A DNA stretch of 64,000 nucleotides, from positions 32,001-96,000 of the forward strand of contig CAVXTM010000012.1 in NCBI GenBank assembly GCA_963764725.1, in the 5' to 3' direction. The stretch is from an uncultured Gammaproteobacteria bacterium (GTDB taxonomy: Bacteria; Pseudomonadota; Gammaproteobacteria; JACCXJ01). The number at the start of each line of letters is the position of its first letter. Position 1 is the first letter of the stretch. The notes beneath the pieces are model-generated. The model was not told where the DNA came from and searched no databases. It saw only the letters and a program-made list of their open reading frames with translations. The translations under genes and the position numbers were made by a program. Below, one piece after another: positions 17,021 through 56,343 of the stretch.

Positions 17021-17155
17021 GCAACGCCTATGCCATTGCGTTGTATTGATATTCCGATTAATAACATCAACGGGTTAGCGCTATACGCGCCGTAGTTAGC
17101 CAGGCTCCTTTCGATCCGGGTCGGTCAGGTTTACCGTTTGCGCCGTAAGCCTTAC
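17021..17155 (-). promoter_or_regulatory. sigma54 promoter, IHF site and tandem UAS for the otsA locus
   Basis: TGGCATAGGCGTTGC (17035-17021); ATCAACGGGTTA ~17066; GTCA-GGT-TTAC 17124 and GTAA-GCC-TTAC 17145. Confidence 0.82.
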
Positions 17156-17253
17156 AATCGGGGCACGCAGTGCCATGGCTGATGAAGACCGAGCGGCGCC
17201 AGCGTAAACCACGCCATCAGCGAGTTACTCGCTCCAATAGAAGAGGCTGCATC

Positions 17254-18597
17254 ATGTCCCATGTGCTGATAGTCGATGACGATGTCGATGCCGCAGCGGG
17301 TCTGACCGAGTTGGTCGCTCGCGAGGGGTTTACCACGGCCACCGCGCACAACTTGAAGGAGGCGTTCGAGCAGATGGCGCGGCAGCGCCCTGACGCGGTG
17401 CTGCTTGACATTAAATTGCCCGACGGCAGCGGCATGGAGTTGTTCGAGAACATCGAATATCGCAACACCACGGAGATCGTCCTCATCACCGGCTACGCCA
17501 GCCTGGAGACCTCGGTGGAGGCGCTGCGCCTCGGCGCGGCCGATTACCTGACCAAGCCGGTGAATTTTAGACAGGTAAAGAAGATCCTGGCGCGCATCGC
17601 CCGGCCCCCCGAACTCAAGGCCGAGATCGGCCGGCTGCGCGGGGAGCTCCGCAGCCTCGGGCGCTTCGGCCCGCTAGTCGGCCAGTCCGCCGCCATGCAA
17701 AGCGTCTACGATCAAATCGCCCGCGTCGCGCCGACCGCGGCGACCGTGCTGATCACAGGGGAGAGCGGTACCGGCAAGGAACTGGTCGCGCAGACCGTGC
17801 ATGAGCTTAGCCGGCGGCGGAAACAACTCTTTCTGCCGGTCAATTGCAGCGCGATCTCGCCCGAACTGCTGGAAAGCGAGGTCTTCGGTCACGAAAAAGG
17901 GAGCTTTACGGGAGCGACGCGCGAGCACAAAGGCTATTTCCAGCGCGCGGACGGCGGGACTTTGTTCTTAGATGAGATCACGGAGATGCCGATCGAGCTG
18001 CAGGCCAAGCTGCTCCGGGTGCTGGAAACCGGGAGCTTCTTGCGGGTGGGCGCCGAACAGCCCATCGAGACCGACGTGCGGGTGATCGCCGCGACCAACC
18101 GAGAGCCCGCGGAGGCAGTGACGCAGGGCAAGCTCCGCGAAGACTTGCTCTATCGCCTTCAGGTCTTCCCGCTGCACCTGCCGCCCCTGCGCGAGCGAGA
18201 GAAGGACATCGAGCTCCTGGTGAACCATTCTCTGGCCGAATTGAATCAAGCCGAGGGCATGGCGAAGACCTTGTCCCGAGAGGCCCTCGCGCAGTTCCGC
18301 AGCCATTCTTGGCGGGGCAACGTGCGCGAGCTTAAGAATGTCCTCCAGCGCGCGTTTATCATGGCCGGCGAGATCATCGATAGCGACTGCCTGCCACCGG
18401 ATTTTGGCTCGGGGAAGGCCCAGTGCGACTTTTCTTCTAAGGATATACCCGTCGGTCTCAGCATCGCCGAGGCGGAGCGGCGCTTAATCCTCGCGACCTT
18501 GGCGCATTGCGGTGGCAATAAGGAAAATACCGCACAGATGCTCGGGATCAGTCTCAAGACTCTGTATAATCGGTTGCGCGATTACGGGTCGGATTAA
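17254..18597 (+). CDS. sigma54-dependent response regulator (REC, AAA+, Fis-HTH)
   Basis: VLIVDDD, LLDIKLP, GESGTGKE, GSFTGA, FLDEI, GNVREL, LGISLKTLYNRL. Confidence 0.96.
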   Translation: MSHVLIVDDDVDAAAGLTELVAREGFTTATAHNLKEAFEQMARQRPDAVLLDIKLPDGSGMELFENIEYRNTTEIVLITGYASLETSVEALRLGAADYLTKPVNFRQVKKILARIARPPELKAEIGRLRGELRSLGRFGPLVGQSAAMQSVYDQIARVAPTAATVLITGESGTGKELVAQTVHELSRRRKQLFLPVNCSAISPELLESEVFGHEKGSFTGATREHKGYFQRADGGTLFLDEITEMPIELQAKLLRVLETGSFLRVGAEQPIETDVRVIAATNREPAEAVTQGKLREDLLYRLQVFPLHLPPLREREKDIELLVNHSLAELNQAEGMAKTLSREALAQFRSHSWRGNVRELKNVLQRAFIMAGEIIDSDCLPPDFGSGKAQCDFSSKDIPVGLSIAEAERRLILATLAHCGGNKENTAQMLGISLKTLYNRLRDYGSD

Positions 18598-24424: not shown

Positions 24425-24510
24425 TTGATCGATCAACTCATCGTGCTTCCCTGCAATCGTATCGAGCTCATCGTCCGTCAGGTCGCCCCACATCTGCTTC
24501 GCCTTGCGAT
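24425..24510 (-). pseudogene. CsbD remnant
   Basis: KAKQMWGDLTDDELDTIAGKHDELI, nearly identical to the intact CsbD at 43350. Confidence 0.8.
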
Positions 24511-26537: not shown

Positions 26538-26778
26538 GCATTAGCCGTGCCACCCTCGTCCATACCGAACGCTGTCGAAGTCAATCAAAGGCTTAGCAAT
26601 TTACTAGATACGCTTCCAGCACATGGGTTCACAGGCCGATCGGTAATAATTGCAAGGGAAATAGCAACTCTTACAGGCGGTTGCTGGTAGACGGCTTGTC
26701 AAATATCGCTGATGTAGTGCTAACCGCTTGAATGTATTGATCCGGGTGTGCAACTTAGAACGGTGGCATAGGCGTTGC
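26538..26778. promoter_or_regulatory. Divergent sigma54 promoters sharing one central tandem UAS
   Basis: TGGCACGGCTAATGC (-, 26552-26538); IHF AATCAAAGGCTTA 26583; GTAA-TAA-TTGC 26643, GCAA-CTC-TTAC 26664; TGGCATAGGCGTTGC (+, 26764). Confidence 0.87.
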
Positions 26779-41641: not shown

Positions 41642-41830
41642 CCGTAGCGACTATGGGCCGCTGAGCGAAAGTCAGCGCGACCGAGGGAAGGAATGTTGAG
41701 TAAATCACCGCCCCGAGCCGCCAACTATTATTACTAAGTCGCACAATCCATATGGCAGGCACGGCAGCGCGAGTGATGAGTATTAGTTGTCAATCAGTGC
41801 CTCTTAGCGCGGCGCACCGTGGTACGGTTT

Positions 41831-41970
41831 CCAACCCTTACAGCCTCGACCGGAAAGTGTTACCGATTCGGGTCCCTATTGCACACCCGTACCTTGTCCC
41901 TCGCACACCCCTAACTGCCTGACTGCGCGCGTTTATGGCCGGACACGCCAAAGCCGGGCATGAAGAATGC
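41831..41970 (+). promoter_or_regulatory. Tandem UAS and sigma54 promoter (repeat copy 1)
   Basis: CCAA-CCC-TTAC 41831, GAAA-GTG-TTAC 41853; GGGCATGAAGAATGC 41956. Confidence 0.8.
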
Positions 41971-41981
41971 TCTCCAGTCAG

Positions 41982-42107
41982 TCATGGCTCACCAGAAGAA
42001 CTAAGATCGCGGCTACGGCGCATGCTGACTACCCCATTTGCCTCCCCCATTTGCCCGCCCTCGGGTGCCCTCTCCCCTAACCGGCATCACGGGCGGGATT
42101 CTTTTTT
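41982..42107 (+). ncRNA. Candidate C-rich small RNA, copy 1
   Basis: Paralog of 49333-49432; CATG..CATG stem, CCCC/CTCCCC motifs, CCCGCCC/GGGCGGG stem plus T-run; no conserved ORF. Confidence 0.65.
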
Positions 42108-42179
42108 ACCTGGGGTGGGGTTGTTGGCGAAGCGGTGTACTACTGACGACCAGGGAAGAAACCCGGCCGGGGGCAACCT

Positions 42180-42644
42180 ATGAGAAATTTGAGACCAGCT
42201 CGTTCGCGTATCCTCGCGCGAAGTAAGGCAGATACCTTGACGGTCAGGATAACCGGAAACTTAGGCCTCAGCCTCAGCTTCGATCTCTGGCATATCTGCC
42301 GTTTGGAGCAAAGCCGCTACCGTCGCTATATCTTCGATCTGGAGAAGATCGTCGTGCTCCATGACTCTGGTTTAGCGTGGCTCCTGATGTTCCAGCGGCA
42401 CGCACTGCGGGCCGGGGCACGGGTCCTGATCGTTAAATGCCGCAACGCAATCGCTCGCCGCTGCGCGGCGATCGGTCTTGAGGTGATAGCCGCCGAGCCA
42501 TGGATTCGACAGCCGATGCTTCGCCAAGGCATGCCTTACCGCGCACCAGTTTGGGGATCTGCAATCGGGCCGAGCGGTGGAAGTCGGGTGCCACACCTCA
42601 GCCTCTGTAAGAATAACGAGCACAATGCACGCGTAATTCACTGA
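42180..42644 (+). CDS. STAS-domain (anti-sigma antagonist-like) protein
   Basis: LTVRITG..FD..YIFDLEKIVVLHDSGLAWLL. Confidence 0.7.
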   Translation: MRNLRPARSRILARSKADTLTVRITGNLGLSLSFDLWHICRLEQSRYRRYIFDLEKIVVLHDSGLAWLLMFQRHALRAGARVLIVKCRNAIARRCAAIGLEVIAAEPWIRQPMLRQGMPYRAPVWGSAIGPSGGSRVPHLSLCKNNEHNARVIH

Positions 42645-42902
42645 TTCTTTATTCGGTTGGGGCCGAGACGCTGCAGTGCTTACTTGGTTCTATCTCCTAT
42701 ACGTATTCACAGTAGTTTGGGGCGGTCATTCTCCTCCTGCGTCGCTAGAGTTGGCATTACCTCCAGAGCAGGAGAAGATATAATGGGGGAATATTGATCG
42801 AACCCGGAATGTCCGCATTCGAAGGCGCCTCACCGGCGCCCTCACCGAGCACGTTGATCTACATCGCGATGTAATTACGCGCGAGCGCGATCGCGCAAGT
42901 TC

Positions 42903-43061
42903 CTAGATTCTCCCCAAGAGCAACAAAATCAGTACCACCAGCAACACCGTGCCAAGGATACTGCTTGGACCGTAGCCCCATCCGCTGCTGTACGGCCAGG
43001 ACGGTATGGCACCGATCAAAAGCACGATCAGTACGATCAATAATATGGTTCCTAATGACAT
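42903..43061 (-). CDS. DUF3309 small membrane protein (52 aa)
   Basis: MSLGTILLIVLIVLLIGAIPSWPYSSGWGYGPS..LLGRI; AGGAG RBS; not in the ORF track. Confidence 0.92.
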   Translation of the reverse strand: MSLGTILLIVLIVLLIGAIPSWPYSSGWGYGPSSILGTVLLVVLILLLLGRI

Positions 43062-43129
43062 CGCTTTCTCCTATCTCATAAATCGTATGTCTACTCTCGG
43101 TTCAGGACTATTACCGCAATTATCAGCAC

Positions 43130-43273
43130 TCAGGTGCACCCTCGCATGAGGAAAATGACCAGTAGAATGGGTATGGGCACGCCTAAAAGCCACAATAGGA
43201 TGTAACCCGCCTTACCTGCTTGCGACTTCAGGGTCGCAGGACGCTTAAAGATGCGCCGCAACTCATTTTTCAT
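43130..43273 (-). CDS. 47-aa membrane peptide ending GKAGYILLWLLGVPIPILLVIFLMRGCT
   Basis: Lies between csbD and DUF3309; LWLLGVP motif. Confidence 0.8.
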   Translation of the reverse strand: MKNELRRIFKRPATLKSQAGKAGYILLWLLGVPIPILLVIFLMRGCT

Positions 43274-43349
43274 TCCCGTGCCACTCTCCTCACGTTCGTT
43301 GGGTTTGCTCCGCGGCCACCAGAGCCGCGGAGCGCAATATCCGGATTTA

Positions 43350-43547
43350 CTATAGGTTCCTCACCCACCCATCGGCTTCTTCCTGCGCTTTTTCCTTGGT
43401 ATAACCATACTTGGCCTGTAACCGACCGACCAGCTCTTCGCGCTTCCCTTCTATGACATCCAACTCGTCATCGGTAAGATCACCCCACATCTGCTGCGCC
43501 TTACCTCTGACCTGCTTCCAACTACCCTTGACTTGATCCCAGTTCAT
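43350..43547 (-). CDS. csbD: CsbD-family general stress protein
   Basis: MNWDQVKGSWKQVRGKAQQMWGDLTDDEL..YG. Confidence 0.95.
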   Translation of the reverse strand: MNWDQVKGSWKQVRGKAQQMWGDLTDDELDVIEGKREELVGRLQAKYGYTKEKAQEEADGWVRNL

Positions 43548-43623
43548 GTTTTCCTCCTCTATCTCTATGTATTGCGGTTTGTGCTTTAAACCCGCGACTC
43601 AGCCGCGGATGTTCAAATCGACT

Positions 43624-43758
43624 TCAAGTACCGTGCCGCTAAACGGCATAACGCAATTTACCTTTCGGTTTAGTGGGATAGCACAGTCGCTTTGGCGAAC
43701 GGTGAAGTCGCACATTAAGATTGGCAGCAAGAATTTCCGGTTGATTTGTAAGGCTTAC
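43624..43758 (-). promoter_or_regulatory. sigma54-like promoter and tandem UAS for the csbD operon
   Basis: CGGCACGGTACTTGA (43638-43624); GCAA-GAA-TTTC 43727, GTAA-GGC-TTAC 43748. Confidence 0.75.
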
Positions 43759-43899
43759 GCGGAGCGGCGTTCACCTCCCAAGGTTACGCGGGCAGTCATT
43801 ATAGAGCGCGCTGGCCGTACCTCGAGACAAACAACTGGATCTTCTCCCAGAGGCTATAGTCGACCGTATCGCCGCACAACAATGAGCCCGCTGGCGCAT

Positions 43900-44046
43900 G
43901 TAAGATTTGCAACGACGCAAGGTAATATTTACACGAATTAAACACAGCGTTTCTTTCTAGGGAACCATTTCTGGATCATTACGAGCGCAAACTGACCGCG
44001 ATTGTTCATCTCGGATGCACCAGCCAATAGCGGGCATAAAAGGTGC
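43900..44046 (+). promoter_or_regulatory. Tandem UAS and sigma54 promoter
   Basis: GTAA-GAT-TTGC 43900, GTAA-TAT-TTAC 43922; GGGCATAAAAGGTGC 44032. Confidence 0.78.
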
Positions 44047-44115
44047 TCAGTGGCATGTGATAGTAAACCTCTGGGCGAAGAGCCTCCGACTAATTCGCGA
44101 AAGCGGGAGAATCAA

Positions 44116-44271
44116 ATGAACAAGTTAACATCTATAATACTTGGTGGTCTTGTACTCGGTTCGCTGGCCGGTTGCGGGAACCAAGGCCCTGCGGAACGAG
44201 CTGGGGAGAATGTGGACGAGGCCGTCGAAGAAATGAAGGATGAAGTCGATGACGCGACCGACGCGCGTTGA
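44116..44271 (+). CDS. Small lipoprotein (GPAERAG motif)
   Basis: GGAG RBS, LAGC lipobox. Confidence 0.85.
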   Translation: MNKLTSIILGGLVLGSLAGCGNQGPAERAGENVDEAVEEMKDEVDDATDAR

Positions 44272-44314
44272 TATCCCACTAACTTGCCTGTGCTGAGGGT
44301 ACCTTTCGCATCCG

Positions 44315-44692
44315 TTGCAGTATTCAACATTTTCTGAACAAGGATCTAGCGAACCGAAACCCGTGAACAAAACACCGGCTCCAACTCCCGTCTCTCCTAC
44401 CCCGCTGATAAGCGGGATGGAGGCGTACGACGCGGACTTTCGGAATAACTTCCAAGCCACGTTCGGGATTCGCGGCTATAGCTACAACCAGTGTGCGCCA
44501 GCCTATGAATTCGGTTATACGATTGCTGTCGACCCACGTTACCACGGCCAGGAATGGATGACGATAGAAACCGAGGCCCGCCGCGAGTGGGAGCTTCGCC
44601 ATGAGGATGCATGGGAGGAATTCAAAGGCGCTGTGCATTACGCGTGGGATCGCGTTCATGGGCTCGATCATCGAACGCAGCTCACCGTTTAG
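44315..44692 (+). CDS. Hypothetical stress-type protein; start uncertain, possibly truncated
   Basis: APAYEFG..W..E..ARREWE..WEEFKGAVHYAWDRV. Confidence 0.6.
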   Translation: MQYSTFSEQGSSEPKPVNKTPAPTPVSPTPLISGMEAYDADFRNNFQATFGIRGYSYNQCAPAYEFGYTIAVDPRYHGQEWMTIETEARREWELRHEDAWEEFKGAVHYAWDRVHGLDHRTQLTV

Positions 44693-44942
44693 ATACAATC
44701 TCGGAGGAGCGAGGGCTCCGATGCCGGTGCGCGCGGACGCTGTAGCAACGGATCGTATCGGTAGTCCTACAATCGATCGCTACGGTAGATTATGCTCAGT
44801 ACGCGACCTCGTTGCTAGTGCTTATCGTCGCGCCACGGCCTAAAACGCGCACAGCAAGCATTGGACGAGGCGATGAGATCAACGGGTCCAATCGGCGCGC
44901 CACCGGGCGATTTTTGTATAATGCTTCCAGAAGAATCAGGCA

Positions 44943-45509
44943 ATGCATAAGAATTTATCACTCATTCTGGGACTCTTCCTGATCACGGCACCATTCGTCC
45001 AGCCTTGGGCCGACGAATACGACGATACGATCGAGGTCTTCAAGGAGGCCGGTCAGAGCGGCAATTTTTTCAACAACGCTTACGGCTATGCGGTGTTCCC
45101 CACCATCGGCAAGGGGGGAATCGGTGTGGGCGCCGCCTACGGGAAAGGTCGCGTGTATGCTAAGGGTAAGCACGTGGGGGACACGTCCATGACCCAGCTC
45201 ACCCTGGGTTTCCAGCTGGGCGGAGAGGCCCATAGTCAGATCATCTTCTTTGAGGATCAGCACGCCTTCAAGCAGTTCACAAACGGTAACTTCGAATTCG
45301 GTGCCCAGGCCAGTGCCGTGGCGATCACCGCTGGCGTGTCCGCGGCTGCCACCACCACCGGCAGCTCGGCCGCTGCGAGCGGCGGGAAGCACGACGCCAA
45401 GACCGCCGGCGCATATCGCAAAGGAATGGGCGTGTTTACGGTGGCCAAGGGCGGTCTGATGTACGAAGCGAGTATCGGCGGCCAGAAGTACAGCTACACG
45501 CCGCTTTGA
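44943..45509 (+). CDS. Ysc84/SYLF-like lipid-binding protein
   Basis: AVFPTIGKGG, GFQLGG, KGGLMYEASIGGQK. Confidence 0.88.
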   Translation: MHKNLSLILGLFLITAPFVQPWADEYDDTIEVFKEAGQSGNFFNNAYGYAVFPTIGKGGIGVGAAYGKGRVYAKGKHVGDTSMTQLTLGFQLGGEAHSQIIFFEDQHAFKQFTNGNFEFGAQASAVAITAGVSAAATTTGSSAAASGGKHDAKTAGAYRKGMGVFTVAKGGLMYEASIGGQKYSYTPL

Positions 45510-45544
45510 ACTGCTGACGAAGGCAGGGAGGGTACCCCACAGCG

Positions 45545-45836
45545 CTCTCTGCTTCGCTTTTGTTCAGAGCGACTCATCCCGCTTCCCAACCCCGAGCGCT
45601 TGCTCAACCCAGGCCTCACCTTCGAGCAACTCGATGCACTGGCCATGCAAATGAGCGACAATGAAAATGCTGCCCAGTTACACAAGGCACGACAACAACT
45701 CTTTAAACAGATCCATGAACAGTGGTCGCACAGCCCAGGCTCCCGACGCCCTCTCCCCGCAGGCCAGTACTCTTTCGCCCTAGGAGGCCGGGGCTTTTAC
45801 TACCTTCTTTCACACTCGTCTGAAATTAGAAAATAC
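45545..45836 (+). mobile_element. IS 3'-end remnant (transposase C-terminus and probable end)
   Basis: LLNPGLTFEQLDALAMQMSDNE..ARQQLFKQI followed by an IS-end-like sequence. Confidence 0.55.
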
Positions 45837-45859
45837 TTGGACGGCACCGCAAAGTTCGT

Positions 45860-46625
45860 CAACCAGATCGTGTTAGTTGGCGCCAGCAATCTAACGCGAG
45901 CACTCGCAACCGCGGTGGAGGCCGCGGAGCACATCTGCGGCAGGCCGAACAGGCTCCTCATCGCCGCCGGTCATGGCCGGTCATACGGCGTCTATAGCCG
46001 GGTTCTGTTCCGCGGCCTACCGGCGATCACCCAGTGCGGCCTCTGGGATAAGCTGGCGACGGGACCGACGCTGCCTACCTTCGCCCTGCTCACCGATCTA
46101 GGCAATGACATCGCCTATGGCGTTTCCACTCGCGAACTCATCGGATGGGTGCGCTGGTGCGTCGAGCGTCTTACAGAACACCGGGCCCGGATCATCATCA
46201 CCACTCTACCGGTGCATCGCCTCGAACGTCTATCGCCAAGAAGATACAGGATCTTGCGAGCGGTGCTGTTCCCAGGACAGCGCCTCGGCTTGCCAGAAGC
46301 GCTTGAGCGGGCGCGAGCAATGAATCTGAAGCTGCGCGAGCTTGCACTTGAGCGACGGATTACGCTGGTCAGTCAGCGGCCGGAATGGTATGGCTTTGAC
46401 TCAATCCATATCCGCCGGCGCTGCTTCGCGACAGCCTATGGTGGGATCCTCAAGCACTGGCTTGCCTGCGCTCCGGATGAGCGGCCGCTCGGCAGCACCA
46501 GCATCCGCCGCTGGCTGCGATTACTGCTCCTGGCGCCGCAATACCAACGCGTCTTCGGATTCGACCGATACCGCGAGCAGCCCGCGGCTGTCCTCCCGCA
46601 CGGTTCTACCGTTTCGCTGTATTAA
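45860..46625 (+). CDS. SGNH/GDSL-like hydrolase; 5' end abuts the IS remnant
   Basis: VLVGASN, GHGRSYG, TDLGND, DSIH. Confidence 0.7.
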
Positions 46626-46845
46626 CGATGCGCATAAAAGCGAAATTGGCTGTGATACAGTATGTCTGGGAGTATGAGAGCGACTTCGACTTTAGCCAAG
46701 TAACGCATTTAAGCTGCAGGTGGTATGCGTGCGAAAGCTATAGTTAGTGTGCGTCCTTACTGATTGCCTGTCTGTGTGTCCGCACAGGGAGGCAGACCAT
46801 AAGCTCAACCGAAATCTACCATCCGGAAAGCCGAGGGACGACACC

Positions 46846-47151
46846 ATGTCAAACTGGCGAGTAGAACTGACTGCAAATAGTGATAACCAACAGGCCATTA
46901 TTGATGTAATGGACACAGTGGGACCGCTCAACAAGTGGCGGTGCGTTACTGATGATGCCTTTATTCCCGATGAGGGTGAATTCACCAATCAAGCTAGAAG
47001 AGTTGTACCGCTTATCCCCAACTTTTGGCAGCTCGACGATTTCGATATCGACGAGGTGCAAGTTGGATCGACTGGTCCCGGAGAAGTATTCGAAAGCGGA
47101 AGTTCCTTTCCGAATGGACCAGTTAGTTGGAGGGTTGTTAAAGCCTTATGA
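46846..47151 (+). CDS. Hypothetical protein, lower GC
   Basis: GAGG RBS, 101-aa ORF. Confidence 0.6.
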   Translation: MSNWRVELTANSDNQQAIIDVMDTVGPLNKWRCVTDDAFIPDEGEFTNQARRVVPLIPNFWQLDDFDIDEVQVGSTGPGEVFESGSSFPNGPVSWRVVKAL

Positions 47152-47434
47152 GAGATTTCATGGGCCAATCCTGTCGTCTATTCGCTCAGCGCGTTCCGGT
47201 GGAGCATCTACCAGATCTCCGACGTGAGCGTCGGCACAAGCGCGGCGACAACACTGGGGTTCCCTTGCCTTGTGTCTGAGCGCGGTGTGGTGGATGTTTA
47301 AGACCGGATACCGGCTCAAGGCGTGAGGCCCTGGATCTCGCCAAGGCAACGGCGCCCACCACTATTTGACTCGGACTTGTTGACCGCCGATTAGCTCCTG
47401 CGAACCGGGCAGACTGGCATTGCGGGTGAGCGCC

Positions 47435-48046
47435 TCAGGCTCCCGGCCAGGATCGCAGCGCCAGCTGGATCGCACGTCGCAATTCAGCACGGCTTGCGCC
47501 GCCCGCTGCCTGGACTGCCAACCCATACATGACCGTTGCGACGTAGCGGGCGAGATCGGCGGCATTGACGTCGGCCGGGAGGTCACCCTTTGCTATCGCG
47601 CGCTTGAAACGCTGCCGTATCGCCGCCTCGCCCGTCTTGCGACGGGCGGCCACTTCCTTGCGGATGGTTTCGGATGCCTCCCTGCATGACAGTGCGCTTT
47701 GCACCATGAGGCAGCCCGGTGGATTCCGTGGATCGGTCTGCAGGTCCACAGCCCCCTGCAACAATCGCTCGACGACTGCGCGCGCGGTCGGCTCCTTGAG
47801 GGCTTCGTCTACGTAGGCTGCCGGCCCCTCGGCGTAGCGATCGAGTGCCTTGCGGAACAGCGCTTCTTTGTTGCCGAAGGCGGCATAGAGGCTCGGACGG
47901 TTGATGCCCATCGCTTCGGTCAGATCCGGAAGCGAAGCACCCTCGTAGCCTTTCTGCCAAAACACGTGCAACGCCCGGTCCAGGGCCTCATCGATGTCGA
48001 AGGCGCGGGGACGGCCCATTCGCGCGGGTGATTTTCTCACTTTCAT
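47435..48046 (-). CDS. TetR/AcrR-family regulator
   Basis: GRPRAFD, FWQKGYEG, GINRPSLYAAFGNKE. Confidence 0.95.
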   Translation of the reverse strand: MKVRKSPARMGRPRAFDIDEALDRALHVFWQKGYEGASLPDLTEAMGINRPSLYAAFGNKEALFRKALDRYAEGPAAYVDEALKEPTARAVVERLLQGAVDLQTDPRNPPGCLMVQSALSCREASETIRKEVAARRKTGEAAIRQRFKRAIAKGDLPADVNAADLARYVATVMYGLAVQAAGGASRAELRRAIQLALRSWPGA

Positions 48047-48066
48047 ACCGCGCGATACTAAACTCA

Positions 48067-48113
48067 TTGACAATCTTTGTCCATGCGCGTATGTTATGTA
48101 CCAGTCGATATAT
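48067..48113 (+). promoter_or_regulatory. sigma70 promoter and probable TetR operator for the SDR gene
   Basis: TTGACA-N17-TATGTT, then imperfect dyad TGTACCAGTCGATATA. Confidence 0.6.
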
Positions 48114-48148
48114 AAGTATCACTCCACTTCCCCAACAGGAGCAAATCT

Positions 48149-48901
48149 ATGACAAAGACACTTACGGGCAAGGTCGCGTTGGTCACCGGCGCGTCCAAGG
48201 GCATCGGTGCTTCCATCGCCAAACATCTGGCGGCCGAAGGCGCGGCTGTGGTCGTCAACTACGCACTGAGTAAAGAAGGTGCCGACGAAGTCGTCGCCGA
48301 GATCGCAGGCAGGGGCGGAAGAGCCATTGCGGTGCAGGCCGATGTCTCAAAAAAGGCAGAGATCGAGCGTCTCTTTTCGGAGACGAGGATGGCATTTGGC
48401 AGGCTGGATATTCTGGTGAACAACGCAGGCATATACGAGTTCTCCCCGCTCGAAGACGTCACGGAAGATCACTTCCACCGGCAGTTTAACCTCAATGTAC
48501 TTGGTTTGCTCCTGGTGTCCCAGGAGGGGATCAAGTACTTCGGTGATGAGGGCGGCAACATTATCAATATCAGCTCAATCGCCAGCACCTACGCGCCGCC
48601 GAATACCTCGGTCTACAGTGCTACGAAAGGGGCAGTGGACAGCATCACGAGGTCGCTGTCCAAGGAACTCGGACCGCGCGGGATCCGCGTCAACGCCATC
48701 AATCCCGGTATGGTGGAAACCGAGGGCGTGCGCGCCGCGGGGATTACCGAGAGCGACATGCGCACGCAGATTGAAGCGCAAACCCCGCTGGGACGGATCG
48801 GACAACCGCCGGACATCGCAACGGCAGCCATCTTTCTTGCTTCCCCGGCCTCCTCCTGGATCACCGGGGAAACGCTCACCATAGCTGGCGGCCTGCACTG
48901 A
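48149..48901 (+). CDS. SDR oxidoreductase
   Basis: TGASKGIG, NNAG, YSATK. Confidence 0.95.
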   Translation: MTKTLTGKVALVTGASKGIGASIAKHLAAEGAAVVVNYALSKEGADEVVAEIAGRGGRAIAVQADVSKKAEIERLFSETRMAFGRLDILVNNAGIYEFSPLEDVTEDHFHRQFNLNVLGLLLVSQEGIKYFGDEGGNIINISSIASTYAPPNTSVYSATKGAVDSITRSLSKELGPRGIRVNAINPGMVETEGVRAAGITESDMRTQIEAQTPLGRIGQPPDIATAAIFLASPASSWITGETLTIAGGLH

Positions 48902-49185
48902 AGTGCCCAGAGGCGTGAAGCCTGACGTGCTACTGAGTGCGACCAACCACAGGTAGTCAATCATCATCACTACGGCGCACTCCGGGATTGCCCTGTCCGT
49001 GCTCGGATTCTTTTTCTTTCGCACCTCATCGGAACGAACCCGCATTGGCATGTTTGTACTCCTGTTTGTCGGCGTGGTGTCTTTTCTCGATTTCCAGGCG
49101 CTCATATCGGTTCTATGCCCGCGTTCTTACGACGCGGGTGTTCGCGGTAGCCCTGCGCCCGCTGGCTTTCGACAGGCTCGCTATT

Positions 49186-49321
49186 GCAACCCTTACAGCC
49201 TCGACTGGAAAGCATTACCGATTCGCCTCTCTGGCACGCCCATTCCCTCTCGCTCGCATATCCTAACTCTCTGACTGGGCGGGGTTATGTCGGGACACGC
49301 CAAGCCGGGCATAAAGAATGC
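49186..49321 (+). promoter_or_regulatory. Tandem UAS and sigma54 promoter (repeat copy 2)
   Basis: GCAA-CCC-TTAC 49186, GAAA-GCA-TTAC 49208; GGGCATAAAGAATGC 49307. Confidence 0.8.
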
Positions 49322-49332
49322 TGTCTAGCCAG

Positions 49333-49432
49333 GCATGGCTCAGGTGCATGCTGACTGTCCCCGTTTGCCTCCCCATTTGCCCGCCCCTGGGGTCCCCCTC
49401 CCCTATCGCGCATCACGGGCGGGATTCTTTTT
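49333..49432 (+). ncRNA. Candidate C-rich small RNA, copy 2
   Basis: GCATG..CATGC stem at the predicted +1, C-rich motifs, terminator; paralog of 41982-42107. Confidence 0.65.
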
Positions 49433-49544
49433 GACCTCGCGATGGGTTGGCAAAGTGATGGGTGGCCGAGTGCGGATCGGGTGGCTTGATTGAAGCACCC
49501 TGAGTTATTTACCTTTTGACCTCCATCCATTAAGAGGAGTGACC

Positions 49545-49751
49545 ATGACTATGCTAAAGGTTGTCGAAATATTGGCGCAGTCCGAGAAGAGCTGGGAGGA
49601 CGCCGCGCAGCTCGCGGTTCAGGAGGCTGCCAAGACGGTGCGCAACATCAAATCGATCTATGTCAAGGAGATGGAAGCAACTGTGGAAAACGATCGGATC
49701 ACCTACTACCGGCTCAACGTCAAGATTTCCTTCGCGATAGAGGGACGATAG
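49545..49751 (+). CDS. Dodecin-family protein
   Basis: KVVEILAQSEKSWEDAA..YRLNVKISF. Confidence 0.92.
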   Translation: MTMLKVVEILAQSEKSWEDAAQLAVQEAAKTVRNIKSIYVKEMEATVENDRITYYRLNVKISFAIEGR

Positions 49752-49860: not shown

Positions 49861-50496
49861 ATGAGTAACCAACTGCCCTATACCCCCAAACAGTTCGCCC
49901 TCAATGGGCTCAACGGCATCTCCGATCGCACGCTCGAGATGCACTTCAAGCTCTACGAGGGCTACGTCAAAGAGACCAACAACTTGAGCGAGCAGATTGC
50001 ACGGTTCCTGGCCGACGGCAAGGTCGATCAAGAGGAGATGCCGGCCTACTCGGAGCTTACACGCCGGGTGGGCTTTGAGTATAACGGCATGGTGTTGCAT
50101 GAATATTATTTCGGTAACCTCAAGCGCGGTGGCTCTGGTAACCCTGACCGCGACTCGGCCTTCTATCAAGCAGCGGAGGCGAGTTTTGGCCGCTACGAGA
50201 TCTGGCGCGCGGACTTCACCAGCGTTGGCAAGATGCGAGGGGTGGGCTGGGCGATCTGTTACCAGGACCCGGTCAGAAAGCGCTTGTCCAATCACTGGGT
50301 TACCCTGCACGAGGTCGGCAATGTCGCTGGCTTTACCCCAATTCTGGTGATGGACGTCTGGGAACACGCTTTCTTGCTCGACTATAAGCCGTCGGAGCGG
50401 CCCAAGTACATCGAGGCCTTTTTCTCCAACATCGACTGGGACGCGGTCGAGATGCGCTTGCAGGAGGGCGCAGCGGCCCGTCCTGTCGGCGCCTGA
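49861..50496 (+). CDS. Fe/Mn superoxide dismutase family protein
   Basis: H..LYEGYV, LHEYYF, DVWEHAF. Confidence 0.9.
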   Translation: MSNQLPYTPKQFALNGLNGISDRTLEMHFKLYEGYVKETNNLSEQIARFLADGKVDQEEMPAYSELTRRVGFEYNGMVLHEYYFGNLKRGGSGNPDRDSAFYQAAEASFGRYEIWRADFTSVGKMRGVGWAICYQDPVRKRLSNHWVTLHEVGNVAGFTPILVMDVWEHAFLLDYKPSERPKYIEAFFSNIDWDAVEMRLQEGAAARPVGA

Positions 50497-51307
50497 GATC
50501 GGGGATGGCCAGACCGCCGCGAGGGCGAGAGTTCGGTTGCTTGGGCCTCGCGAACACCTTCCCGCTGCCTGACCGCGCACCTGCATGATTTGGTTTTGCG
50601 CATGCTGCTGTCTTTTACATCCGAGCCTAGGCGATAGGAACCTAACCGTCGCACCTCGATTGTTTGGTGTGCCGCGGCGGTAATCTGCGACCGGAAAGAG
50701 GTAAGTCGCGGCAGCACGAGTAAGGCCGAGCAATGATGATTTCGAACGACGAGTTGCCCGCCTTGGCAGAGCATCGGAAAGAGGGACCGCATGTGTCGCT
50801 ATTCCTGCCGAGCGCGCGCGGCTGCCGAGATCCAACAGGGCTCCGATTCGCTTCAAGAACCTGATAAGCGAGGTTGAATCTCAACTCAAGGAACAAGAGA
50901 TGAGAAACCGGAGATCGAAGCCCTGTTGAATCCCGCGCAAGAGCGTCTTCAGGATGATGACTTTTGGCAGCACCAATACGACGGACTCGCCTTTTTCCTT
51001 GCCCGGGACTTCGCGCAATCATTTTCCCTGGCGGAGCGTTCGAAGAATTGGCCGTGGTCGAGCACCGCTTTCACTTGAAGCCGCTGTTTCCTCTGATCAG
51101 CGAAGATGGGACTTTTTACCTGCTTGCCCTTAGCCAAGAAATCCTGAGACCCTTAGTAGTGAAGCGCTGCACGAGCAAGCTTGGGAGCTCGTCGGCCCTA
51201 CTTTAATGCTAGACGAGAGAGGTTCTATGCCATGGCGAGCCAGGAAAAGAGCTCCAACCGACTCACCGAGGTCTTAACTTGCCGCTGTCGATGGTCGGAT
51301 CGAGATC

Positions 51308-52686
51308 GAGCTTCCGTCAAGAGGTGTGTAAATAAGTTCAGGCGGCCTTTCTGATGGTGTCATTATTTGTTCGTATTCCATCGGCGAATGCGACGCCGTT
51401 ATAGATGTCTTTCAGTAGCTCGGTGGCGTTGAGCCGGCGGAAAGTCGTTTCAGCGACCATCATGATTTTCCAGATCAGGGCGGTGGCGTTATCGACTTTC
51501 TTGAACCGCTTGGCCGCATTGGTACGTAGCCGCACAGCGGCGAAGGGCGATTCGATCGGATTGGTGGTTCGCAAGTGGATCCAGTGTTCTTTGGGATAGC
51601 GGTAGAACGCCACCATGCGCTCCCAGTCGTGATCGAGAAGCTCAGCGGCGGCTTGGAAGCCTTGTTGACGGCACCAGCGTTGGAAGGTCGCTTTGGCCTT
51701 CTCCGCTTCTTGGCGGGTAGGGGCATAGGGGATCGGACAGAGCAGCGCTTTCGCTTCGGCCTGGCGTTTCTTCGGAAGCTTATCCAAGAGGTTTAAAATG
51801 CGATGATTCCAACAGCGCTGTTCCTCGGCCTCGGGATACACCTCGGCCAGTCCACCCCAAATCCCCAGATGTCCATCACCGACCACCAGGCGCGGTGCAC
51901 GTAGGCCACGTTTCTTCAAATCCCGTAACACCGCCGACCAACTCTCGGTGGATTCCCGAAACCCGGGGGTGATGGCTAAAAAGGCCTTGCGCCCATCGCT
52001 CAGGCCCGCCACGACCACTAAGAGCGCGGCCTTCTCCTTCTCCAATCCCGCCTTGACATACACCCCGTCTACCCACAAATAAACGACCCCCAACTCCGCG
52101 AGAGGCCGTTGATTCCAAAGCGCATATTCCCCCGCCCACTTCGCTTTCAGCCGCGCCACCGAACCCCCCGAAAGCGGCGCCCCATCCCCGAGCAGCCCCC
52201 GCAGCGCAAGCTCAAAGTCGCCCAGGGATAACCCATGGAGATACAACGTGGGAAGTAACTCCGCCACCGTCTCCGTGCGGCGGACAAATAAAGGCAACAA
52301 CCTGCTCTCAAAGCGCTCCTCCACCCCTCGCACCCGCGGCCTCGCAAGCTCCACCGTCCCACAGCTGAGGCCCAACTTCCGTACCTTCCCATACCCATTG
52401 CGGTACCCGCCCGGGCCGTCTATCTCCGCCCGACGCTCCGATTTCTCTCGCCCTAAGAACACGGTGACTTCCTCTTCGAGCAGATCTTGCAAATACCCTT
52501 GAATCCGCCCACGGACCCATTCCTCGAGATTCTCCCATACCACACTTGACCTACCCACTCCTTCGGTGCTTTGCTTCTTCATGGCGGTGTGCTCCTTTCT
52601 CTCGGGCCTGCCAGCCCGTTCTTTGTTAATTACTACAGAAAGGGTACATCGCCTTCACCTTTTTACACACCCTTTGATGGTACCTC
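51308..52686 (-). mobile_element. IS256-family element, copy 1
   Basis: Imperfect TIRs GAGCTTCCGTCAAGAGGTGTGTAAA / GAGGTACCATCAAAGGGTGTGTAAA; 8-bp TSD TCGAGATC. Confidence 0.95.
51338..52582 (-). CDS. IS256 transposase
   Basis: YRNGY, WVDG, VGDG, QRCWNH, RTTNPIES. Confidence 0.96.
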   Translation of the reverse strand: MKKQSTEGVGRSSVVWENLEEWVRGRIQGYLQDLLEEEVTVFLGREKSERRAEIDGPGGYRNGYGKVRKLGLSCGTVELARPRVRGVEERFESRLLPLFVRRTETVAELLPTLYLHGLSLGDFELALRGLLGDGAPLSGGSVARLKAKWAGEYALWNQRPLAELGVVYLWVDGVYVKAGLEKEKAALLVVVAGLSDGRKAFLAITPGFRESTESWSAVLRDLKKRGLRAPRLVVGDGHLGIWGGLAEVYPEAEEQRCWNHRILNLLDKLPKKRQAEAKALLCPIPYAPTRQEAEKAKATFQRWCRQQGFQAAAELLDHDWERMVAFYRYPKEHWIHLRTTNPIESPFAAVRLRTNAAKRFKKVDNATALIWKIMMVAETTFRRLNATELLKDIYNGVAFADGIRTNNDTIRKAA

Positions 52687-54189: not shown

Positions 54190-54964
54190 CTACAGGCTGG
54201 CGGCCAAATCTCGCGTACGTTGTGCGGCCGGCACCTCCCTGCATCCACTGGCATTCTGGCCCGACCAAAGCGGAGAAAAGTCACCGCTGCCGTAACCTTC
54301 AGCTTTTGCACGCAAGGGAGCAATTGCGGAGGTGGCCAAAGGAAAGGCAGGCAGAGCGGCGCTCATCGGCCCGAGTTCCTTTATCACACGGTTCATGATT
54401 GAACGCGCGGGTCGGCCGGTGAACACGTTTGTCAGCGCGGTGTGGTGGGCCGTCTCGCTTTTCAGCGCAGCACGATGCACCACGCTCGTGGTTGCTTCGG
54501 GGCAGAGCAAATAGGCCGTTCCGATCTGTACGCCGGCCGCTCCCAGCGTCAGTGCGGCGGCAACGCCTTTCGCGTCAGCGATGCCCCCGGCCGCAATGAC
54601 CGGTGTCTTCACGGCCCTCACGATCTGCGGTACCAGCGCGAACGTGCTCACTTGGCGGGTCAGATCTTCCGACAGAAATGTGCTGCGATGTCCCCCCGCC
54701 TCTAGACCCTGCGCGATGATGGCATCGACACCGTGCGATTCCAGCCCACGTGCCTCTTCAACGGTGGTTGCCGAGGACAAGATCTTCGCTCCCCACGTTC
54801 GCACGCGTGCAAGCAGCTCGGGCGATGGCAAACCGAAATGAAAGCTGACGACTGCGGGTCTGATCTCGCTCAGCATATCGGCGGCTTCGTGACTGAAGGG
54901 GCCCCGCCCAGGGCCCACTGGCACCGTGCTCACGTCCAGACCATACTCTTGGTAGTACGGCGAC
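54190..54964 (-). pseudogene. Nitronate monooxygenase, 5'-truncated by IS256
   Basis: VSFHFGLP, AQGLEAGGH, AAGGIAD, FTGRPAR, LWSGQ. Confidence 0.9.
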
Positions 54965-56343
54965 GAGCTTCCGTCAAGAGGTGTGTAAATAAGTTCAGGC
55001 GGCCTTTCTGATGGTGTCATTATTTGTTCGTATTCCATCGGCGAATGCGACGCCGTTATAGATGTCTTTCAGTAGCTCGGTGGCGTTGAGCCGGCGGAAA
55101 GTCGTTTCAGCGACCATCATGATTTTCCAGATCAGGGCGGTGGCGTTATCGACTTTCTTGAACCGCTTGGCCGCATTGGTACGTAGCCGCACAGCGGCGA
55201 AGGGCGATTCGATCGGATTGGTGGTTCGCAAGTGGATCCAGTGTTCTTTGGGATAGCGGTAGAACGCCACCATGCGCTCCCAGTCGTGATCGAGAAGCTC
55301 AGCGGCGGCTTGGAAGCCTTGTTGACGGCACCAGCGTTGGAAGGTCGCTTTGGCCTTCTCCGCTTCTTGGCGGGTAGGGGCATAGGGGATCGGACAGAGC
55401 AGCGCTTTCGCTTCGGCCTGGCGTTTCTTCGGAAGCTTATCCAAGAGGTTTAAAATGCGATGATTCCAACAGCGCTGTTCCTCGGCCTCGGGATACACCT
55501 CGGCCAGTCCACCCCAAATCCCCAGATGTCCATCACCGACCACCAGGCGCGGTGCACGTAGGCCACGTTTCTTCAAATCCCGTAACACCGCCGACCAACT
55601 CTCGGTGGATTCCCGAAACCCGGGGGTGATGGCTAAAAAGGCCTTGCGCCCATCGCTCAGGCCCGCCACGACCACTAAGAGCGCGGCCTTCTCCTTCTCC
55701 AATCCCGCCTTGACATACACCCCGTCTACCCACAAATAAACGACCCCCAACTCCGCGAGAGGCCGTTGATTCCAAAGCGCATATTCCCCCGCCCACTTCG
55801 CTTTCAGCCGCGCCACCGAACCCCCCGAAAGCGGCGCCCCATCCCCGAGCAGCCCCCGCAGCGCAAGCTCAAAGTCGCCCAGGGATAACCCATGGAGATA
55901 CAACGTGGGAAGTAACTCCGCCACCGTCTCCGTGCGGCGGACAAATAAAGGCAACAACCTGCTCTCAAAGCGCTCCTCCACCCCTCGCACCCGCGGCCTC
56001 GCAAGCTCCACCGTCCCACAGCTGAGGCCCAACTTCCGTACCTTCCCATACCCATTGCGGTACCCGCCCGGGCCGTCTATCTCCGCCCGACGCTCCGATT
56101 TCTCTCGCCCTAAGAACACGGTGACTTCCTCTTCGAGCAGATCTTGCAAATACCCTTGAATCCGCCCACGGACCCATTCCTCGAGATTCTCCCATACCAC
56201 ACTTGACCTACCCACTCCTTCGGTGCTTTGCTTCTTCATGGCGGTGTGCTCCTTTCTCTCGGGCCTGCCAGCCCGTTCTTTGTTAATTACTACAGAAAGG
56301 GTACATCGCCTTCACCTTTTTACACACCCTTTGATGGTACCTC
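54965..56343 (-). mobile_element. IS256-family element, copy 2 (no TSD)
   Basis: Same sequence as copy 1; flanks ACGGCGAC and TTGGCAGA differ. Confidence 0.95.
54995..56239 (-). CDS. IS256 transposase
   Basis: Translation identical to copy 1. Confidence 0.96.
   Translation of the reverse strand: MKKQSTEGVGRSSVVWENLEEWVRGRIQGYLQDLLEEEVTVFLGREKSERRAEIDGPGGYRNGYGKVRKLGLSCGTVELARPRVRGVEERFESRLLPLFVRRTETVAELLPTLYLHGLSLGDFELALRGLLGDGAPLSGGSVARLKAKWAGEYALWNQRPLAELGVVYLWVDGVYVKAGLEKEKAALLVVVAGLSDGRKAFLAITPGFRESTESWSAVLRDLKKRGLRAPRLVVGDGHLGIWGGLAEVYPEAEEQRCWNHRILNLLDKLPKKRQAEAKALLCPIPYAPTRQEAEKAKATFQRWCRQQGFQAAAELLDHDWERMVAFYRYPKEHWIHLRTTNPIESPFAAVRLRTNAAKRFKKVDNATALIWKIMMVAETTFRRLNATELLKDIYNGVAFADGIRTNNDTIRKAA

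Follow-up and report, generated by a model that had tools for sequence, protein, structure and literature searches.

Does a duplicated non-coding block in a stress-gene island encode a small regulatory RNA with a function of its own, or is it the leader of whichever gene happens to follow it? The question is raised by a 64,000-nt stretch of DNA from an uncultured gammaproteobacterium (hereafter the window; C12:32001-96000 of the 4,214,073-bp, 19-contig genome G000), in which two homologous blocks, at 41829-42140 (copy 1) and 49184-49460 (copy 2), each carry a C-rich unit that follows a sigma-54-type promoter and ends in a terminator-like hairpin. Three pmoA/amoA-like genes are encoded in this genome, which falls among the uncultured methane oxidisers of upland soils. 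Sequence comparison makes it quite probable that the blocks hold a conserved non-coding unit under a sigma-54-type promoter. The explanation favoured here, namely that each unit is a stand-alone sigma-54-dependent C-rich small RNA forming the post-transcriptional arm of a stress regulon, is given as a whole a probability of about 0.5.

The two blocks share 79% mean column identity over ~300 bp in a pairwise alignment, and a repeat finder independently pairs 41829-41877 with 49184-49232 at 86% and 42011-42123 with 49337-49449 at 79%, which bears out the ~300-bp duplication described in an initial annotation of the window. Both copies have the same layout, i.e., a ~120-bp conserved region, a GG-N10-GC element, a 5′ hairpin, the C-rich linker, a two-tier hairpin and a T-run (Table 1). 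Every sub-feature of the initial description (the promoter, the CATG..CATG stem, the linker, the CCCGCCC/GGGCGGG stem and the T-run) was found to be present, including a CATG..CATG stem loop about 25 nt longer in copy 1, where the interior measures 34 nt vs 9 nt in copy 2. Genome-wide, a count with an nhmmer profile of the whole block and with BLAST gave exactly these two copies.

Transcription of the unit would depend on sigma-54. GG and GC spaced by 10 nt in a TGGCAC-N5-TTGC-like context, which define such a promoter, are found in GGGCATGAAGAATGC and GGGCATAAAGAATGC, and GG-N10-GC is intact in 23 of 23 aligned homologous promoters. The pattern GGCATNNAGAATGC, with one mismatch at most, has 32 matches in the genome vs 6 for a reversed control, and a promoter scanner reported no sigma-70-like site on the plus strand of either region. 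The genome encodes a single rpoN (one Sigma54_DBD match, 229 bits) and 12 clear activator genes, represented by strong Sigma54_activat matches. Furthermore, an upstream activator site lies ~100-150 nt ahead of the promoter, as is expected of sigma-54 promoters. The promoter class assigned initially is thereby supported, with transcription starts predicted near 41982 (copy 1) and near 49333 (copy 2).

The final sequence set comprises 22 distinct full modules (the window pair and 20 further full copies from relatives and metagenomes, which align with it end to end), three core-only copies and one promoter-only copy. Mean pairwise identity across the 22 full modules is 0.51 just upstream of the module, 0.77 in the upstream activator region, 0.78 in the promoter, 0.49 in the 5′ hairpin, 0.78 in the C-rich linker, 0.81 in the terminator hairpin including its loop and 0.90 in the T-run, falling to 0.49 in the 33 nts that follow and to 0.26 further downstream. 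Because high identity starts with the activator region, extends through the T-run and drops right after it, the unit is sharp-edged, in agreement with the discrete unit first proposed. Indels among the homologues are not multiples of three, hence no reading frame is kept, as had also been noted from the two window copies.

Within the predicted RNA, the conserved parts are the single-stranded C-rich ones and not the 5′ structure. The linker consists of two tandem YCCCCAUUUGCC units, and a third motif related to them sits in the terminator loop, which is itself C-rich and 13 nts long in copy 1. The 5′ hairpin, closed by CATG/CATG, is variable, and copy 2 combines a short 5′ hairpin with a C-rich linker like that of copy 1. 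Most single-sequence folds leave the linker unpaired, and all 22 predict the terminator hairpin, which is followed by five to six T; a conserved, accessible seed region of the kind expected of a base-pairing small RNA is present. A simple terminator scanner misses this hairpin because its loop limit is 8 nts, so that the terminator call rests on the folds and the alignment. The genome has one hfq gene, and the C-rich, G-poor free linker and loop, the U-rich stretch by the terminator and the presence of Hfq would, by analogy, fit the design of a base-pairing small RNA directed at G-rich ribosome-binding regions.

The unit is restricted to one order. Among 60 relatives, the block was matched in 10 of 14 genomes of the window's own family and in none of 46 from other families. 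A covariance model (R1) built from the 85-nt core, which scores 94.5 bits on copy 1 and 89.9 bits on copy 2, detected 14 copies across the 15 genomes of the order, which includes USCg_Taylor; they are spread over 11 genomes, with two per genome at most. Applied to 149 genomes from other families of the class, R1 gave one match (E = 0.006 per genome), which is at chance level because 149 genomes were searched. A scan of a genome collection returned 95 loci, nine of which are the element (eight duplicates of the relatives' loci and one new locus, L057), the others being unrelated terminators; all 10 loci returned by a metagenome scan are the element. L057 comes from a bin labelled Acidobacteriota, yet its gene context is the same as that of the other element loci. 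It lacks exactly one linker unit.

The promoters of the two units belong, as judged from shared sequence motifs, to a local regulon together with at least four other sigma-54-type promoters that have the same activator-site motif. The sequence CAAC[CT]CTTACAG occurs exactly at only three sites in the genome, ahead of the two RNA promoters and of the promoter at 26765, each time 100-125 nts upstream of the GG of a GGCAT-N6-TGC promoter. Ahead of the otsA, DPBB and 44033 promoters, which are all in the window and near the activator gene, lie related GTAAG-N-CTTAC palindromes, and the otsA promoter region aligns along its length with the RNA promoters, including the IHF-like TAAC...TGA block. In total, the sigma-54 island at 15091-50496 holds at least seven GGCAT-N6-TGC promoters (17021 on the minus strand, 19040, 26765, 36794, 41957, 44033 and 49308), most of them preceded by a GTAAG-N-CTTAC-type palindrome, and one gene for an NtrC-type activator lies beside them all. 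The genes of the island include otsA, glycosyltransferase, GDE, CsbD, DUF3309, dodecin and superoxide dismutase (SOD) genes. The annotated stress genes (trehalose-6-phosphate synthase, CsbD, DUF3309, DUF2383, Usp, dodecin and SOD) suggest a response to desiccation and oxidative stress.

Table 1. Features of the duplicated blocks and of the surrounding sigma-54 island (window coordinates)
Feature	Position	Strand	Evidence or detail
Upstream activator region, copy 1	41829..41950	+	Pairwise identity, motif and otsA-promoter alignment; half-palindrome CAACCCTTACAG at 41832-41843, GTTACCGATTC at 41859-41869, IHF-like block CCTAACTGCCTGACTG at 41910-41925
Sigma-54-type promoter, copy 1	41956..41971	+	GGGCATGAAGAATGCT; GG-N10-GC element GGCATGAAGAATGC at 41957-41970 (GG 41957-41958, GC 41969-41970)
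Predicted small RNA, copy 1, ~126 nt	41982..42107	+	Fold, alignments, R1; ends predicted
5′ hairpin, copy 1	to 42028		Variable
C-rich linker, copy 1	42031-42055		Two tandem units
Outer terminator stem, copy 1	42054-42060/42091-42097		CCCGCCC/GGGCGGG
Inner terminator stem, copy 1	42064-42069/42083-42088		GGUGCC/GGCAUC
Terminator loop, copy 1	42070-42082		C-rich
T-run, copy 1	ends 42107		
G-rich stretch after terminator, copy 1	42108..42140	+	ACCTGGGGTGGGGTTGTTGGCGAAG...; partly conserved
STAS-like gene downstream of copy 1, 154 aa	42180..42644	+	Weak STAS_2 match, Pfam E = 2.2e-4, below the curated cut-off
Upstream activator region, copy 2	49184..49305	+	CAACCCTTACAG at 49187-49198
Sigma-54-type promoter, copy 2	49307..49322	+	GGGCATAAAGAATGCT; GG-N10-GC element GGCATAAAGAATGC at 49308-49321; start predicted at ~49333
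Predicted small RNA, copy 2, ~100 nt	49333..49432	+	Fold, alignment, R1; ends predicted
Outer terminator stem, copy 2	49380-49386/49417-49423		CCCGCCC/GGGCGGG
T-run, copy 2	ends 49432		
Dodecin gene downstream of copy 2	49546-49751	+	Pfam
Fe/Mn SOD gene downstream of copy 2	49861-50496	+	Pfam
otsA sigma-54-type promoter	17021..17034	-	GGCATAGGCGTTGC; upstream palindrome TGTAAGGCTTACGG
Candidate activator, NtrC-type response regulator	17170..18597	+	Pfam Sigma54_activat (3.3e-70), Response_reg, HTH_8
DPBB protein promoter	19040		GGCAT-N6-TGC
Regulon promoter	26665..26778	+	CAACTCTTACAG, then GGCATAGGCGTTGC 100 nt downstream (26765)
Promoter of glycosyltransferase genes	36794		GGCAT-N6-TGC
Promoter of small lipoprotein-like frame	44033		GGCAT-N6-TGC

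The candidate activator is encoded divergently from otsA and its sigma-54-type promoter and would activate the whole promoter set. Of 14 relatives, 10 have an orthologue with at least 68% identity, and in G001 and G013 it shares a contig with the RNA. One orthologue, 95% identical (L166, G003:C86:6461-7885), contains one in-frame TGA, which may be a sequencing error or mark a pseudogene. Eight genomes have both the activator and the RNA module, two the module alone, three the activator alone and two neither; one of the last two, G006, carries only a promoterless core. This phyletic pattern neither proves nor disproves the activation link.

Two observations were made on other genes of the island. 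Directly behind the regulon promoter at 26765, a small open frame rich in Lys, Ser and Thr (MSAKKISTKASASKQTSK..., 26867-~27000, plus strand) encodes what looks like a hydrophilin- or LEA-like product; a crude ORF picker had chosen a minus-strand frame that overlaps it. In addition, a 79-nt direct repeat pairs 24427-24505 with 43424-43502 at 76%, the second copy lying inside the CsbD gene (43350-43547, minus strand), so that there is probably a CsbD-like paralogue near 24.4 kb.

The genes behind the module differ from locus to locus. An intact STAS-like gene follows three modules (L001, L003, L114) and a decayed one follows a fourth (L005), the STAS gene being missing behind 18 of the 22 full modules. 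Dodecin and an intact SOD gene follow three (L002, L014, L115), and dodecin with an SOD remnant, or a frame-split dodecin, two (L009, L057). Most often, the next gene is otsA, either directly (eight modules: L006, L010, L011, L112 and L117-L120) or via an otsB-like gene (L007). In one case (L116), the contig end is reached first. The three remaining modules are intact and have no co-directional downstream gene: L004 and L008 are followed only by converging genes (a convergent set of a DUF2383 remnant, DUF3309 and CsbD), and at L013 converging genes come after a dodecin gene deleted to its last 18 codons. In G001:C83, the dodecin gene behind copy 2 (L013) is deleted and the STAS-like gene behind copy 1 (L005) is frame-broken, and both RNA modules are intact. 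L004, L008 and L013 come from genomes flagged as unpublished (G008, G005 and G001, respectively), and loci identical to the first two are found in the public collection (L085 and L050). L007 (G014), L009 and L015 (both G012) and L010 (G009) are likewise from unpublished genomes.

Some copies have parted from their promoter, or the promoter from its RNA. The USCg_Taylor record L032 is identical to locus L012 of G006; in this genome and in two metagenome contigs, the promoter, the activator region and the 5′ hairpin are gone, and the linker, hairpin and T-run are intact 12 nts after a DUF2383 stop codon, at the end of a CsbD-DUF3309-DUF2383 gene row. Conversely, in G012 a second promoter copy (L015) drives otsA and its RNA part is degenerate.

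These loci bear directly on the alternative, already raised in the initial annotation, that the units are cis-acting leaders or attenuators, in which the promoter serves the downstream stress gene and the terminator restricts read-through until it is relieved, perhaps by a protein bound to the C-rich repeats, by temperature or by a ligand. This would account for the 18 of 22 modules with an intact or nearly intact co-directional gene 70-140 nts after the T-run (73 nts for the STAS-like gene of copy 1; ~250 nts, via the otsB-like gene, for L007). Furthermore, no sigma-70-like promoter lies between the terminator and the STAS or dodecin gene in either window copy; therefore, these genes may depend on read-through, in keeping with a leader role. 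The leaders of the STAS and OtsA type are also G-rich (38-46% G); folds of read-through transcripts allow them to pair with the C-rich stretches, and the G-rich stretch after the copy 1 terminator pairs with the linker in such a fold. However, the module is not always followed by a gene that it could regulate, since three of 22 have no co-directional gene and one has a decayed one, and the downstream genes belong to three unrelated families. The 5′ domain, which would be the sensor of a riboswitch or attenuator, is the least conserved part of the unit, varies in length and is 25 nts shorter in copy 2. Folding of the 22 RNAs without the 3′ arm of the terminator revealed no conserved antiterminator pairing with the 5′ arm, and complementarity to the leader in cis does not exceed that of shuffled sequences. 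Finally, the core retained by G006 lies at the 3′ end of an operon, and G012 has otsA under the same promoter with a degenerate RNA part. Because the downstream genes vary, stand-alone and core-only copies exist and an antiterminator was not found, an RNA with its own function is favoured, and a purely cis-acting leader is regarded as unlikely. A leader role for read-through transcripts is nevertheless likely as a secondary effect.

Like the missing internal promoter, several further results weigh against the favoured small RNA. A search for RNA runs covering 41700-42700 listed none. Although 94.9% of the stem cells of the terminator are paired (vs 38-50% when the partners are slid), only one pair, in the outer stem, varies on both sides (C-G to U-A in four sequences). 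This is not significant, since that pair count is also attained in 419 of 500 shuffles, and 10-12 of 500 attain the cell count and the covariation score; the test is weak because the 24 distinct sequences are too closely related. RNAalifold on the whole RNA recovered only the terminator, and the 5′ hairpin gave no consistent alignment across its three length classes. Single-sequence folding energies of the two copies are no better than those of shuffles (z = -0.10 and +1.26). No orthologue of the activator was detected in the module-carrying genomes G011 and G014, and it is present in G002, G007 and G010, all devoid of the module. The pairing with G-rich ribosome-binding sites suggested initially also fared poorly: complementarity of the core to its own downstream leader is not above that of dinucleotide shuffles at 15 of 15 loci tested (the longest Watson-Crick match, 10 nts at L120, is equalled by 19 of 300 shuffles), so that for these leaders only the G-rich composition stands. 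Similarly, when 4,090 crudely defined start regions were scanned for duplexes, the energies were broadly distributed (mean -23.6, sd 4.8 kcal/mol), with no outstanding target and no interpretable top matches. Clusters of G-tracts were also searched for and gave no candidates in 5′ leaders, and hence no target with complementarity above chance emerged. A dispersed repeat of at least ~70 nts with the hairpin CCAAAGGGGAGAG...CTCTCCCCTTTGG recurred in the G-tract and duplex scans; its sites in the genome (C7:94190, C10:152801, C11:398046, C12:188338, C12:282192 and C13:68558) are outside the window.

One specific lead to a target came up post hoc. The 9-mer GGAGGCAAA, complementary to the linker sequence UUUGCCUCC, stands in ribosome-binding position in only three genes of the genome, namely pmoA of the main pmoCAB operon, a DegP-like protease gene and one unknown. 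At pmoA (L182, G000:C18:232500-236800), the ribosome-binding site is GAGGAGGCAAACAUAAUG. Pairing of the linker UUUGCCUCC(CC) with this site could halt the production of particulate methane monooxygenase once the desiccation regulon is switched on; this is a long shot, as the site is mostly an ordinary Shine-Dalgarno sequence and its GGAGGCA core precedes pmoA in 15 of 15 genomes of the order, including four without the RNA. If true, the RNA would be a switch coupling dormancy to methane oxidation in atmospheric methane oxidisers.

The repeated C-rich units could instead titrate a protein that binds RNA, in the manner of CsrB and RsmZ with their GGA motifs or of the sigma-54-dependent CrcZ with its A-rich motifs. 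The tandem-repeat linker with a third related motif in the loop, the loss of exactly one unit at L057, as expected of a repeat array, and the lack of a convincing mRNA target would be in keeping with such a sponge. It is improbable, however, as three motifs are few and Pfam scans linked no candidate C-rich-binding protein to the locus. Still another explanation holds that the block is conserved as DNA only, i.e., as an enhancer, a promoter and an insulating terminator, the C-rich stretch being a by-product. The activator region and promoter are indeed as conserved as the RNA, and the structural covariation is not significant. Yet the linker and the 13-nt loop, which have no role in termination, show stem-like conservation (0.78-0.81) while the 5′ hairpin drifts, and G006 keeps both after the loss of the promoter, which makes a mere cassette very unlikely. 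A miniature inverted-repeat transposable element (MITE) or a small-protein gene, suggested by the duplication of the block and by open frames of 82 and 52 aa overlapping the units and a six-codon frame ATGGCTCAC...TAA near the predicted start of copy 1, respectively, were rejected as barely conceivable, because the genome has just two copies and neither block has terminal inverted repeats, and because homologue indels break every frame and the ATG is absent from the second genus.

Other repeats of the window involve different elements. Two 300-nt repeats, 100% identical (51307-51606 and 54964-55263), belong to two transposase genes of the Mutator family (51338-52582 and 54995-56239, both on the minus strand), and these insertion-sequence copies bracket ~2.4 kb. 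A 79-nt direct repeat (297-375 and 1315-1393, 75%) is located upstream of and within a PQQ-propeller/TonB-receptor region.

For the stand-alone small RNA, the following course of events is proposed. The NtrC-type activator, encoded 24-31 kb away in the island, probably binds the enhancer-like upstream region, which together with the IHF-like site would drive the sigma-54 promoter. Transcription would start at the predicted positions and stop at the strong intrinsic terminator, giving RNAs of ~126 and ~100 nts, whose functional core would be the unstructured two-unit linker and the C-rich terminator loop. These C-rich stretches could pair with G-rich sequences at or near the ribosome-binding sites of other mRNAs, and the RNA would then form the post-transcriptional arm of a stress regulon that probably responds to desiccation and oxidative stress and includes otsA, the Lys-rich small protein, glycosyltransferases, STAS and dodecin-SOD. 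Transcripts escaping the terminator probably supply whichever gene lies downstream.

The analysis yields a testable picture for the uncultured upland-soil methane oxidisers: a compact stress island under sigma-54 has an activator of its own and a recognisable palindromic activator site, along with genes for trehalose and stress proteins and, in one or two copies, a lineage-specific C-rich RNA. The predicted RNA looks like a new, order-restricted regulator of an already known kind, and no description of such an RNA in methanotrophs was found in the literature searched. Should it work in trans, this group would have its first proposed riboregulator. With R1 and the alignment of 22 sequences, the RNA can be recognised in metatranscriptomes from soil.

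The transcriptional wiring predicted for the unit resembles that of Qrr, GlmY/GlmZ, CrcZ and Pxr, in which an enhancer-binding activator and sigma-54 give rise to a short regulator that ends in a terminator and often exists as paralogues. The present unit is unrelated to these RNAs in sequence and differs by its C-rich seed and by a regulon centred on trehalose and stress proteins. The CcsR or cuckoo RNAs of Alphaproteobacteria, paralogous small RNAs induced by stress, have CCUCCUCCC-like anti-Shine-Dalgarno motifs and are processed as tandem hairpin repeats from the transcript of a DUF1127 gene under RpoH-type promoters. In contrast, each unit described here comes with a sigma-54-type promoter and a terminator of its own. 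The resemblance to sX13 and CcsR noted in the initial annotation is functional only and does not extend to sequence or structure: Rfam gave no match at E ≤ 10 in 41700-42300 and 49100-49600, be it to CcsR, sX13 or the actinobacterial 6C small RNA, and a tRNA was the only match at gathering score in the whole window. In Xanthomonas, C-rich motifs of sX13 have been demonstrated to act on G-rich motifs near translation starts, and sX13 accumulates under stress, according to PMC3771888. Like the unit described here, sX13 is a gammaproteobacterial small RNA of ~100 nts with several C-rich motifs. However, its three C-rich loops are apical on three stems, while two of the three motifs are here in a single-stranded linker, and both the genomic context and the sigma-54 promoter with its upstream activator region set the present unit apart. 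In Actinobacteria, the C-rich loops of the 6C small RNA pair directly with several mRNAs and G-C-rich pairing suffices, according to PMC6486639. The use of C-rich stretches as pairing elements would be shared, in another phylum, with another fold and, unlike 6C, in the presence of an hfq gene. If it acts in trans, the RNA of the upland-soil methane oxidisers would be another independent case of C-rich/anti-G-rich regulation beside those of Xanthomonas, Actinobacteria and Alphaproteobacteria.

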